Shown here: positions 37,139-45,680 of the stretch, one piece after another
How the letters are laid out: every line of letters starts with the position of its first letter
Numbering within the stretch: the first letter of the stretch is position 1
From: Candidatus Omnitrophota bacterium
Lineage (GTDB): Bacteria > Omnitrophota > Gorgyraeia > Gygaellales > Profunditerraquicolaceae
Assembly (NCBI GenBank): GCA_022710715.1
Contig: JAKLGJ010000003.1
Span: forward strand, 190,527-254,526
Reading direction: 5' to 3'
Length of the DNA: 64,000 nucleotides
The notes under the pieces: model-generated
What the model was told of the DNA's origin: nothing
Database searches by the model: none
What the model saw: the letters and a program-made list of their open reading frames with translations, nothing else
Made by a program: the position numbers and the translations under genes

Positions 37139-37951
37139 TTATTCCGGCTGCGTAGCCGTTACGCCGGGCTGGGGAGCGACGCGCAGATTGGGGTAGAGCA
37201 CGACGATACTGATGCGGCGGTTACGGGGATCTTCGGGATCGGCTTTGATCACCGGGCGGGTCGCGGCAAAACCCGCGACCATGCTGATGCGCCGGATGTC
37301 CAGACCGGATTTCTCCAGCTCCAGCCTGGCCGACGAAGCGCGGGCGGTGGAAAGCTCCCAGTTAGTGTACACGCTGGAAGGGAATTCCAGCGCGTCGGTA
37401 TGGCCTTCGATCACGAGTTTGTTATCCGTTTCGTTGAGATTCTCGCTCAAGGCCTTGAGGATCACTTTGCTGTTGGGGTTGAGTTCCGAGCTGCCCAGCT
37501 GGAACAGGGGTTTTCCCTGATTGTCCATGATATCGATGCGCACCCCCTCTTCGGTCAGGGTCACCTGCACCTGTTCTTTAAGATCGCCCAGTTTATGTTC
37601 GATGGTTTTTCTCAACTTGTCGCGCAGATCCGAGGCGCTGACCACAAAAGTCAGCCTGGTCTGCGTCGAGGAATGGAATAATCCCGGCTGCTTGCGGTTG
37701 CCCCGCAGATTGCCCTTCTCGTCGAAAATAGTCTGCCCCAGTTTCTGGAATATCGCGCGGTACTTGAAGTACCCGGCGATCTCGGAACGCTTCTCGCCGG
37801 TAAGCATCGTGGTGACCAGCCACATCACCAGAAAAAACGCCATCATCGCGGTCATGAGATCGGCATACGCGACTTTCCAGGCTCCGCCGTGATGGCCGCC
37901 GACCACTTTTTTCACCCGTTTGACGATAATCGGCGCTTTCTGATCGCTCAC
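37139..37951 (-). CDS. motB: Flagellar stator protein MotB (OmpA-like C-terminus).
   Basis: AWKVAYADLMTAMMAFFLVMWLV plug/TM; peptidoglycan-binding domain. Confidence 0.85.
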   Translation of the reverse strand: MSDQKAPIIVKRVKKVVGGHHGGAWKVAYADLMTAMMAFFLVMWLVTTMLTGEKRSEIAGYFKYRAIFQKLGQTIFDEKGNLRGNRKQPGLFHSSTQTRLTFVVSASDLRDKLRKTIEHKLGDLKEQVQVTLTEEGVRIDIMDNQGKPLFQLGSSELNPNSKVILKALSENLNETDNKLVIEGHTDALEFPSSVYTNWELSTARASSARLELEKSGLDIRRISMVAGFAATRPVIKADPEDPRNRRISIVVLYPNLRVAPQPGVTATQPE

Positions 37952-38800
37952 TTATTTACCCTGGCCTTTGACCGCGGTTTCCATTTCGCTGAACGACGGC
38001 TTGACCTCGCCCGGTATGGCCCGTCTGCCGAATTCCACCGCCATCAGCGGAGCTACGCCCCGGGCAAAGGCGATCAGCGCGGCTTTGATGATCTGCAGAT
38101 ACACCCCTTCCTCGCGAGCCTTATGCTCGAGATTGGTGGACATGGGGCTGAAAATACAATACGACCCGAAGATCCCGAAGAACGTCCCCAGCAGCGCTAC
38201 GGCGATATGATGGCCGATGACCAGGGGCGGCTGGTCGATCTTGCCCATGGTCAGAACAACGCCGATAACCGCGGCGACGATGCCCAGACCGGGCAACCCG
38301 TCGGCGATCCGGTTGACCGCGTGCGACGGCTCCAGGGCATGCTCGTGATGCGTGTCTATCTCCAGGTCGATCAGGCTCTCCAGTTCGAACGGGGGGATAT
38401 TCGCGCTGACGACCATGCGCACGTTGTCGCAGATGAACTGCACCAGCTCGTGGTTTATCTTATATTTTTTGAACAACTCGCTCTGTTTGGGATTCTCGAT
38501 ATCGCCTTCCACGGAGAGCGGCCCATCCTTGCGGATCTTGGAGAATAAACCGTACAATAAAGAAAGATAGTTCAGATAGGATTTCTTATTCGGCGGGACG
38601 GCTGTGAACATGGCCGGAAGATTCTTGAGTACAGCAGCGACCACTCCCGGGGGATTAGCGATAAGAAAAGCGCCTATGGCTGCGCCGAAAATGATCATCG
38701 CTTCCACCGGCTGGAATAGAATCGCCACGTTCCCCTTTTCCAGTATGTATCCGCCGACAACCGAAAACATGACCACAACGATCCCGATAATCACGAGCAT
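37952..38800 (-). CDS. motA: Flagellar stator protein MotA.
   Basis: Collinear with E. coli MotA motifs (YLQ...LER.DIENP...LP.FGIVAAV.GVV...EFGR). Confidence 0.85.
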   Translation of the reverse strand: MLVIIGIVVVMFSVVGGYILEKGNVAILFQPVEAMIIFGAAIGAFLIANPPGVVAAVLKNLPAMFTAVPPNKKSYLNYLSLLYGLFSKIRKDGPLSVEGDIENPKQSELFKKYKINHELVQFICDNVRMVVSANIPPFELESLIDLEIDTHHEHALEPSHAVNRIADGLPGLGIVAAVIGVVLTMGKIDQPPLVIGHHIAVALLGTFFGIFGSYCIFSPMSTNLEHKAREEGVYLQIIKAALIAFARGVAPLMAVEFGRRAIPGEVKPSFSEMETAVKGQGK

Positions 38801-38803
38801 AGT

Positions 38804-39067
38804 TCAGCCTTTCCCGTTAAGCCAGAGCTGGGCGCTTTTTGCGAATACCGCGACTTTCGCCGGAGACACGCTCATCACTCCGCCGGTGATCGCCAGCTTC
38901 TGAATGGTTGCGCCGGTAGTGATGCGGATGTTACCCTGCAGCAGCTGCGCGACCAGCGGCGCGTGGCCGGGGAGTATCCCCATCTCTCCGGCGTACGCCG
39001 GCACGGTCAGGAAATCCGCGTCCGCGGAAAAAACCATTTTCTCCGGCGTGATGATCTCTACTTTGAT
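38804..39067 (-). CDS. atpC: F1 ATP synthase epsilon subunit.
   Basis: [12 protein letters not shown]...ITGGVMSV. Start uncertain (GTG 39067 proposed); overlaps the atpD 3' end. Confidence 0.7.
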
Positions 39068-44345: not shown

Positions 44346-44360
44346 GTGTCCTCCCTTTGT

Positions 44361-45095
44361 TTAGTGTTCCTCGAGTTTGACTGCGCTCGCAACGTACGAG
44401 ACAGACAGAACCATGAAAATAAGCGCCTGGATGAACCCGACCATCAAACCCAGCAGCAGGATGAACGGCCGCAAGAACAACGGCCCCAGGCTCAATCCTT
44501 TGACGATGAGTTCCTTGCCGAAAAAGAATTCCAGCATCAGGAAAGCCAGTATGCCCAGCAGGATCTCCTTGGCGAAGATATTGCAGAACAAACGCAAAGC
44601 CAGCGAGAACGGCCGGGCGAAATTACCGATCATCTCGATGATGAACATCAATCCGCGGATAGGAAACATATACCAGGGAAGCGACGGCCCGAAGAAATGC
44701 TTCAGGTATCCCAGCCCCTGCCGGCGAAACCCCATGAAGTTATAGTACACGAATACCACCAGCGACAGGCCCACGGTAACATTCAGGTCCGAAGTCGGGG
44801 AGATCAGGCCGGGGAACAAGCCGATAAGGTTGCCGACAAAGATGTACAGGAAGATCCCGATAAACAAAGGATAATACCGGACCGCGTCATGGCCGATGGC
44901 GTCGTCGATCATGCCGGTAATACTCTCGAAACACATTTCAAAGACCGATTGCAGCGCGTGCGGTACCCGCCGGGCGGTTTTGAGCACCGCCAGCGACGCG
45001 ACCCCGATAGCCAGCCATACCAGCCAGGTCATCAGCAGGCTGGTGGGAATGTTCGCGATATGGTATTCGATGCTTTCCGGAACAACCGAGCTCAT
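44361..45095 (-). CDS. atpB: Fo ATP synthase a subunit.
   Basis: Conserved Arg helix ...LALRLFCNIFAKE. Start trimmed to MSSVVPESIEY; the upstream 117 aa of the track ORF is a Gly/Arg-rich read-through. Confidence 0.85.
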   Translation of the reverse strand: MSSVVPESIEYHIANIPTSLLMTWLVWLAIGVASLAVLKTARRVPHALQSVFEMCFESITGMIDDAIGHDAVRYYPLFIGIFLYIFVGNLIGLFPGLISPTSDLNVTVGLSLVVFVYYNFMGFRRQGLGYLKHFFGPSLPWYMFPIRGLMFIIEMIGNFARPFSLALRLFCNIFAKEILLGILAFLMLEFFFGKELIVKGLSLGPLFLRPFILLLGLMVGFIQALIFMVLSVSYVASAVKLEEH

Positions 45096-45478
45096 ACACT
45101 GCGCCTTTCTCTCGTCTTCTGCGACTGAACGGCCCTGCCGATCAACCAGACCGATACCGCCAGTCCCGCGACCAGCCCGCACACGATACCCCAGACGTTC
45201 ACCGCAGCCGGTCCTACCAGCAGCCAGAAGGCTATGCCCATCGCGGCAAACCGCAGGAAAGGGTTTTTGAACAGGTAACTCGTCCAGTGCCGGCGATAAA
45301 CGGATATCGCCGCTTTCAGACCGATGATCAATAAAAACAGGTCTGCCAGACTCACCAGAACGCCCGCGATCACGCCGGTAAACAGGTGGGCCCTGCCCAG
45401 AACCATACCGCTGGCTATCAGCAACACTGCCAGGCACGCCGCACACCGGGCAGCCCGCAGCTGGATATTATGTATCAT
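45092..45478 (-). CDS. atpI: ATP synthase protein I (AtpI-like small membrane protein).
   Basis: 4 TM helices; located upstream of atpB. Confidence 0.55.
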   Translation of the reverse strand: MIHNIQLRAARCAACLAVLLIASGMVLGRAHLFTGVIAGVLVSLADLFLLIIGLKAAISVYRRHWTSYLFKNPFLRFAAMGIAFWLLVGPAAVNVWGIVCGLVAGLAVSVWLIGRAVQSQKTRERRSV

Positions 45479-45680
45479 CGGAAAGCTTCTTGATCTCTTT
45501 AATCACCTGCCAGAAACCGGCAGCGATACCCAGGATGAGAAATACTAACGTAAAAAGCGGCGAACTGCCGAACCGCTTATCGATCGCCAGCCCTATGCCC
45601 AGCCCCAGCGCCGTGGCGACGATCATGGTAATGCCCAGCGACGAAAGCGACCAGAGCTGCCAGGAAGCGTTTTTGCTCAT
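45468..45680 (-). CDS. AtpZ / ATPase_gene1-family small membrane protein.
   Basis: Two-TM 70-aa protein at the head of the atp operon. Confidence 0.5.
   Translation of the reverse strand: MSKNASWQLWSLSSLGITMIVATALGLGIGLAIDKRFGSSPLFTLVFLILGIAAGFWQVIKEIKKLSDDT

Follow-up and report, generated by a model that had tools for sequence, protein, structure and literature searches.

We analysed a stretch of 64,000 nucleotides (nt), hereafter the window, from an uncultured metagenome-assembled genome labelled by NCBI as Candidatus Omnitrophota bacterium (GCA_022710715.1, contig JAKLGJ010000003.1), in which the genes of an F1Fo ATP synthase (atp) are directly followed by the flagellar stator genes motA and motB. 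Genes were identified by Pfam and NCBIfam profile searches, and the positions given below are those of the window. The sequence-only reading of this DNA had described a 13-gene unit starting at atpZ. The names it listed amount to 12, and the tight packing runs further upstream, through the genes for a receiver, a kinase and a helix-turn-helix (HTH) protein, to position 47963. The string actually consists of 15 genes on the minus strand (47963-37139, ~10.8 kb), including three signalling genes upstream of atpZ, and the largest gap between neighbours is 15 nt. In several independent assemblies of this species a separate gene caller gave the genes identical coordinates, and the arrangement is present there too.

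The first gene of the string codes for a small DNA-binding protein of the HTH_17 (excisionase) family (47766..47963, 65 amino acids (aa); PF12728, TIGR01764). It overlaps by 4 nt the start of the gene for a hybrid sensor histidine kinase with the domains REC-GAF-HisKA-HATPase (46078..47769, 563 aa; Pfam). The third gene encodes a stand-alone receiver-domain response regulator (45677..46090, 137 aa; PF00072), whose stop overlaps the atpZ start (ATGA). Within this trio, and between it and atpZ, the overlaps are 4-13 nt. The small membrane protein AtpZ, or 'ATPase gene 1' (45468..45680, 70 aa; PF09527, 67 bits), is followed by an AtpI-like protein (45092..45478, 128 aa), which scored 23 bits with PF03899, just below the cutoff, and was identified mainly by its position.

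The structural genes of the ATPase come next. The Fo part is encoded by atpB for subunit a (44361..45095, 244 aa; PF00119 with 188 bits), atpE for subunit c (43980..44345, 121 aa; PF00137, with the ion site Q..E-S-L..Y) and atpF for subunit b (43476..43964, 162 aa). These are followed by the F1 genes atpH for delta (42926..43462, 178 aa), atpA for alpha (41404..42921, 505 aa; Pfam domains and NCBI name), atpG for gamma (40494..41399, 301 aa; PF00231) and atpD for beta (39058..40497, 479 aa; Walker A GGAGVGKT and DELSDED; Pfam and homologues). The gene for epsilon, atpC (38804..39076, 90 aa; PF02823), overlaps atpD by 19 nt, and its true start is the GTG at 39076, as opposed to that of the 119-aa open reading frame (ORF) delimited mechanically. 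The string ends with motA (37952..38800, 282 aa; TIGR03818), which codes for stator subunit A of the E. coli type (MotA1), and motB (37139..37951, 270 aa; MotB_plug and OmpA domains), which codes for stator subunit B. All eight structural subunits of F1Fo (a, c, b, delta, alpha, gamma, beta, epsilon) are thus encoded, with TIGR01131 (a), TIGR01144 (b), TIGR01145 (delta) and TIGR01216 (epsilon) above their cutoffs. AtpD has the catalytic P-loop GGAGVGKT and subunit c has the ion-binding glutamate within FIESLVLY, as expected of an F-type enzyme.

At the atpC-motA junction on the minus strand, a spacer of 3 nt ('act') separates the atpC stop TGA (38806-38804) from the motA ATG at 38800. Direct reading of the junction bore out the earlier claim that motA starts 3 nt past the atpC stop, so that motAB are joined to the end of a complete F1Fo operon without room for a promoter. 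The ribosome-binding site of motA, which had been placed within atpC, is there as the purine-rich GGGAAAGG ending 7 nt 5' of the ATG, though its match to a Shine-Dalgarno sequence is weak to moderate. The motB GTG (37951) abuts the motA stop TAA (37954-37952). The closeness of stops and starts at both junctions would couple translation, and atpC and motA are predicted to be co-transcribed. The hairpin after motB was no better than shuffled sequence (z = -0.38) and so does not mark the end of the unit, and a small PAS gene ~200 nt downstream of motB could be a further member.

The 179-nt region 5' of the HTH gene is the first real intergenic region of the string, and a predicted sigma-28 (FliA) promoter sits in it. 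This promoter, TAAAGTTT-TTCAAGGCCAG-GCCGATAA (48096..48122, minus strand), lies ~130 nt 5' of the first gene and matches TAAAGTTT-N11-GCCGATAA at all 16 of 16 positions; the class III pattern TAAA-N15-GCCGATAA is found at the same place (48122-48096). In shuffled windows 0.02 matches per window were expected when up to 2 mismatches were allowed. The only other site in the 64 kb with at most 2 mismatches is TAAAGTAT-N11-ACCGATAA (36518..36544, minus strand; 2 mismatches in 16), ~70 nt 5' of the genes for a methyl-accepting chemotaxis protein (MCP) and CheW. No sigma-54 consensus was found in the 36-49.5 kb part of the window. A 12/12 match to the core TAAA-N15-GCCGATAA also occurs on the plus strand at 35838-35864, antisense within the MCP coding region, where the codons specify a transmembrane helix. 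It may reflect codon usage by chance, or an antisense promoter.

In L172, the closest relative, the same 16/16 motif stands 75 nt before the HTH gene, with the spacer TTCAATCGCAC where the window has TTCAAGGCCAG. Both the spacer and the flanks differ between the two loci, which makes the pair of promoter elements the most conserved block in this intergenic region. Upstream of the motif, L172 has a strong hairpin with a U-tract (z = -4.75), and therefore its promoter is insulated from the upstream gene. An 11/12 sigma-28 site also stands in front of the L172 MCP gene. In loci of other phyla, a perfect sigma-28 motif is present ~14 nt upstream of motA in six loci of MotA homologues (L096, L099, L100, L111, L145 and L148) and upstream of flagellin in L011. 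The same motif at motA and flagellin promoters elsewhere, together with the copy before the MCP gene in the window, makes a FliA regulon plausible in this organism. The sequence-only reading had set the locus against the sigma-28 class III operons in which mot genes normally sit. This contrast has to be inverted: the mot genes are still behind a perfect sigma-28 consensus, and the atp genes are the odd part. Since that consensus heads the string, motAB would still belong to a class-III-type operon, with ATP synthase genes inside it as the oddity.

The epsilon subunit of the window consists of the beta-sandwich domain only (PF02823), and TIGR01216 matched it at profile positions 2-82 of 130. 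By the Pfam and NCBIfam profiles the C-terminal helical hairpin is not present in the window atpC, and no coding space is left for it because the motA ATG lies 3 nt past the atpC stop. In all loci where motAB is linked, epsilon has 85-97 aa. In the E. coli F1Fo enzyme, the extended C-terminal domain of epsilon is the autoinhibitory element which blocks hydrolysis (PMC5214741). Naturally short epsilons with only the beta-sandwich are known in the families PRK13449 (88 aa), PRK13442 (102 aa) and PRK13451 (101 aa). The window protein resembles them in extent, but it scored below their cutoffs (58.7 vs 106; 64.5 vs 80) and passed only the general TIGR01216. Subunit c has a peculiarity of its own. 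The c subunits of the window, L172, L174, L176, L178 and L179 have 116-124 aa and a signal-peptide-like N-terminal extension of ~40 residues (MVKKLAGCCMALLTQGAVAWA, then AEGG...). This extension is kept across the ATPase clade, whether motAB is linked or not.

The stator proteins encoded after atpC have the features of a working flagellar stator, judged by their hallmark residues and domains. MotA passed the curated equivalog TIGR03818 (MotA1; 364.3 bits, cutoff 303.8). When it is aligned with MotA of E. coli K-12, the residues R90 and E98, which contact the rotor (FliG), and the channel prolines P173 and P222 are invariant (E. coli numbering). MotB contains PF13677 (plug) and PF00691 (OmpA-like, peptidoglycan-binding), and D32, in the single transmembrane helix, is invariant with respect to E. 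coli MotB. Its best NCBIfam match was PRK09041 with 232 bits, below the cutoff of 277.

We compared the locus with its relatives, whose junctions were read from DNA or from gene tables. Identities of the beta subunit to the window were taken from alignment, except for L006-8, where they come from tblastn with a partial atpD. Directly after atpC, motA-motB follows in L172/L173 (also L009/L010; 82%), L006-8 (81%) and L174/L175/L177 (80%), while motA-motB-PilZ follows in the P0140 contig (79%) and in L176 (79%). L172 also has the same HTH-kinase-receiver trio, which precedes its atpZ. In the P0140 contig FlhG-like, YcgR-like, FliA-like and FlgM-like genes stand directly upstream of atpZ. In L178 (76%) motAB lies 1.9 kb downstream of atpC and is again followed by PilZ. 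The atpC-motA gaps are 3, 8, 10, 19 and 20 nt in the window and those relatives with DNA, and 3 nt in the P0140 gene table. The window, L172, L174, L176 and P0140 group as one clade when the beta subunits are placed in a neighbour-joining tree, and the linkage was found in every member whose context was examined (beta subunits 76-82% identical to that of the window). By synteny in relatives, which had been proposed as a check, this is not a recent rearrangement, as the arrangement recurs in six other lineages with beta subunits ~75-82% identical.

L178 itself is Fibrobacterota-like. The ~1.9 kb between its short atpC and motA-motB-PilZ (11661-13553) hold three small reverse-strand ORFs, one with a weak FG-GAP match. 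This spacer could stem from an insertion that split a once tight junction, or the association could be an independent, looser one.

The linkage is rare when viewed from the MotA side. Scans of species-representative genomes and JGI metagenomes gave 160 loci with MotA proteins 41-59% identical to that of the window, mostly from Nitrospirota and Desulfobacterota. These distant motA loci have ordinary flagellar or chemotaxis contexts, and the atp linkage became visible only in searches that started from the ATPase. Of these, 116 had 1.5 kb or more of sequence upstream of motA, and atp genes stood beside motA in none of them (0/116), which agrees with the earlier description of the arrangement as unusual. 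Besides the window's own 99% cluster, the MotA-side search returned three clusters (P0002-P0004) at 65-68% identity; two of them were examined for context, and in both motA directly follows a short atpC.

The slot after atpC is not always filled by the same kind of stator. In the window, L172, L006 and L176 it holds a MotA1 (TIGR03818) and a PRK09041-type MotB, and in L174 and L178 a PRK08124/PomA-like MotA with a MotD/MotS-like MotB. In the beta tree, L174 nests within the ATPase clade among MotA1-bearing loci. The MotA of L176 is 49% identical to that of the window and groups with the unlinked MotA of L059. Since two non-orthologous stator families fill the same slot, which is hard to fit with a neutral inherited accident, we argue for selection on the linkage. 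The MotB linked in L174 (12581-14053) has 490 aa, with a tail of ~270 residues after the OmpA domain that is rich in Pro, Ala, Lys and Val and is unusual for a stator B subunit.

All parts of the locus are known from other systems. As in the canonical atp (unc) operon of E. coli (atpIBEFHAGDC), the eight structural subunits are in the same order and atpI is upstream. Unlike it, the window has an additional atpZ/gene1, the ~40-aa extension of subunit c and a 90-aa epsilon, with three signalling genes upstream, motAB downstream and a predicted sigma-28 instead of a housekeeping promoter. The locus also resembles the class III motAB(-cheAW) operon of E. coli and Salmonella in its TAAAGTTT-N11-GCCGATAA promoter, the abutting motA-motB, the nearby MCP and CheW genes and the stator residues of the MotA1 family. 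It differs in that thirteen genes, a two-component system and the F1Fo operon, stand between the promoter and motA.

Other F-type ATPases have been linked to ion pumping or to motility. The N-ATPase (atpDCQRBEFAG) has likewise been proposed to be an outward ion pump and not a synthase. The window enzyme is not a member of that group: its gene order is canonical, and the scores were 60 vs 131 for TIGR03322, 93 vs 302 for TIGR03306 and 20 vs 100 for TIGR03166, with TIGR03321 far below its cutoff. A link between F-type ATPases and motility is known from the Type 2/3 F1-like ATPases of Mycoplasma gliding and from the 'symbiotic' F-type ATPase of Omnitrophota, which is encoded beside type-4a pilus genes (PMC10066038). 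Those are divergent, non-respiratory alpha/beta paralogues associated with pili or gliding, whereas the window encodes a complete F1Fo (a, b, c) with flagellar stators. Our literature searches turned up no description of motAB joined to an atp operon, or of atp genes behind a sigma-28 promoter. The nearest published idea is the pilus-linked 'symbiotic' ATPase, a different and divergent enzyme.

Taking the gene content, the spacing, the conserved promoter motif, the synteny and the stator residues together, we read the locus as a 15-gene motility operon, in which a sigma-28-type promoter drives the signalling trio, an uninhibited F1Fo ATPase and the motAB stators for which this ATPase makes the ion gradient. 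We consider this reading an even call. Once the sigma factor of the late flagellar genes becomes active, the signalling trio, the F1Fo enzyme and the stator units would all be made from a single transcript. The enzyme with the short epsilon would then run as an ATP-driven ion pump, and it could do so because its epsilon is without the C-terminal hairpin that blocks hydrolysis in other bacteria. In a fermentative anaerobe, ATP from substrate-level phosphorylation would in this way be turned into an ion gradient and the gradient into flagellar rotation. Transcription from the sigma-28 motif, read-through along the whole string and the direction of hydrolysis are predictions from the DNA, and so is any assignment of the coupling ion. 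The organism is taken to be an anaerobe, and published work pictures Omnitrophota as fermenting anaerobes in which V-type ATPases are common and F-type ATPases vary (PMC8542988, PMC10066038, 2026 preprint). This published picture makes an accessory F-type pump plausible.

We also suggest, though only tentatively, that the F1Fo of the whole clade now belongs to the late flagellar genes. FliA would control it as a dedicated ATP-driven ion pump, de-repressed by the loss in epsilon and made in fixed proportion with the stators, to power swimming in cells whose ATP comes from fermentation, probably beside a separate housekeeping ATPase (e.g. of the V-type). If so, the flagellar regulon would include an energy-supply module, of which there is no description so far. 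Flagellar regulons are thought to consist of motor, filament and chemotaxis genes, and the ion gradient behind their rotation is taken for granted as a housekeeping matter. The locus differs in that a rotary ATPase and the stators are under one predicted flagellar promoter, the ATPase is without its hydrolysis brake, and two unrelated stator families have been recruited to one position. If the genes are co-expressed as predicted, the locus is an example of how anaerobes that strictly ferment and have little energy to spend allot ATP to swimming, and it offers a genetic handle on the old question of the matching of gradient producers to consumers. It also flags motile, chemotactic members under the Omnitrophota label, a phylum mostly described as non-motile nanobacteria.

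Several observations weigh against a motility operon of this kind. A sigma-28 motif 10 kb upstream is no proof of one mRNA that reaches motB. If the F1Fo were the sole ATP synthase of the genome, control by sigma-28 alone would be implausible and further promoters would have to exist. L174 is without the signalling genes, and its atpZ is preceded by a sigma-70-like TTGACA-N17-TATAAA close to the consensus and not by a sigma-28 site. For this reason sigma-28 control is documented only for the subclade of the window and L172; within the ATPase clade the promoter type varies and the atp-motAB junction does not. The short epsilon is not specific to the motAB arrangement either, because it also occurs in L179 (Chitinispirillaceae; beta 74% identical, epsilon 85 aa), where no motAB follows atpC, and in the curated families PRK13449 and PRK13442. 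L180 (beta 77%) likewise has no motAB after atpC, and its epsilon has 138 aa.

Part of this evidence would also fit a neutral fusion of operons, in which motAB landed downstream of a housekeeping ATP synthase in an ancestor and was carried along without any special coupling. We regard this as rather doubtful. The complete atp set in canonical order, the housekeeping-type promoter of L174, the related operons of L179 and L180 without motAB and the detached motAB of L178 are all consistent with it. However, a single ancestral accident does not predict two non-orthologous stator families in the slot of one ATPase clade. It also fits poorly with the atpC-motA spacing held at 3-20 nt in five lineages, the perfect and conserved sigma-28 promoter that heads the string in two species, the flagellar regulators flanking the operon in the P0140 contig and the absence of the arrangement from the 116 other motA loci.

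Another possibility, compatible with the motility operon, is a private sodium circuit in which the ATPase exports Na+ and the stators are driven by it. The Na+ ligands in the c-ring of Ilyobacter tartaricus are Q32, E65, S/T66, T67 and Y70. In the alignment with relatives, subunit c of the window has Q, E, S and Y at these positions. L174 and L178 carry PomA/MotP-like and MotS/MotD-like stators, and some homologues are labelled 'H+/Na+-transporting' by JGI. The fifth ligand position, T67, is Leu here, however, and the motif is incomplete. Moreover, MotA and MotB of the window are of the E. coli type (TIGR03818, PRK09041), a family in which the characterised proteins run on H+, and no sequence rule reliably assigns the ion specificity of stators. 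We think that a sodium circuit is unlikely.

Even less probable is an independent transcription of motAB from an unrecognised promoter inside atpD/atpC, with the adjacency reflecting only a compact genome. It draws on the fact that the consensus sequences of promoters in this phylum are not known, and on an 11/12 sigma-28-like site of L174 at the atpD/atpC boundary, ~250 nt 5' of motA. The latter is within the chance rate, as the 21 kb of the L174 locus contain five sites that score 11/12 or better. An internal sigma-28 promoter in atpC had been proposed as a point to check; neither a sigma-28-like site (at least 10 of 12 positions) nor a sigma-70-like site was found in atpC and the 3' end of atpD, in the 400 nt 5' of the window motA. 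L172, L006 and L176 have no such site upstream of motA either. Coupling is favoured instead by the gap of only 3 nt and by the location of the motA ribosome-binding site within atpC.

That MotA and MotB are a 5:2 motor re-used away from the flagellum, for instance in envelope work or in a direct partnership with the ATPase, is very improbable: motility genes are absent from most described Omnitrophota (PMC8542988), flagella are unmentioned in a large survey of the phylum and the 64-kb window has no flagellar structural gene, but MotA passes the flagellar equivalog cutoff with its FliG-contacting R90 and E98 kept, MotB keeps its plug, D32 and peptidoglycan-binding domain, the locus is bordered by sigma-28 promoters and by genes for MCP, CheW and PilZ proteins, the P0140 homologue has FliA-like and FlgM-like genes beside it, and a flagellum is known from at least one member of the phylum (PMC8542988).

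Downstream of the string, the minus strand continues with the MCP gene (36450-34798; Pfam) and the CheW gene (34780-34286; Pfam, PRK10612). A PilZ-domain protein is encoded at 33675-33217 (Pfam), and a small ORF lies between the CheW and PilZ genes (within 33217..36450). In three relatives (L176, P0140 and L178) a PilZ gene comes directly after motB. Directly upstream of the string (48143-53518) are the genes for a REC-PAS-HisKA-HATPase kinase of 499 aa and for a 1280-aa protein with about six PAS domains and HisKA_2. L172 holds an equivalent pair of kinases, which means that the signalling neighbourhood is conserved too. In L006 the gene after motB (2966-3571) fuses HTH_17 to a receiver domain, and in the window both are separate genes that flank the kinase. 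This fusion suggests that the HTH_17 protein and the receiver form one regulatory output.

No structured RNAs or tRNAs were found within the window. Between 8001 and 18000 lies an island of low GC content (0.35-0.44 vs 0.54-0.59 elsewhere). It is located inside a region of polysaccharide biosynthesis with genes for a WecG-family glycosyltransferase (6344-7855), an NTP_transferase (18416-19276), a Poly_export protein (21588-22292) and a Bac_transf protein (22775-24193), and it may be a horizontally acquired surface-glycan cluster. Three large ORFs had no Pfam match at E <= 1e-5, at 8645-10933 (plus strand, 762 aa), 19978-21561 (minus strand, 527 aa) and 31455-33107 (minus strand, 550 aa). In further assemblies of this species, the 550-aa ORF is likewise conserved beside PilZ.

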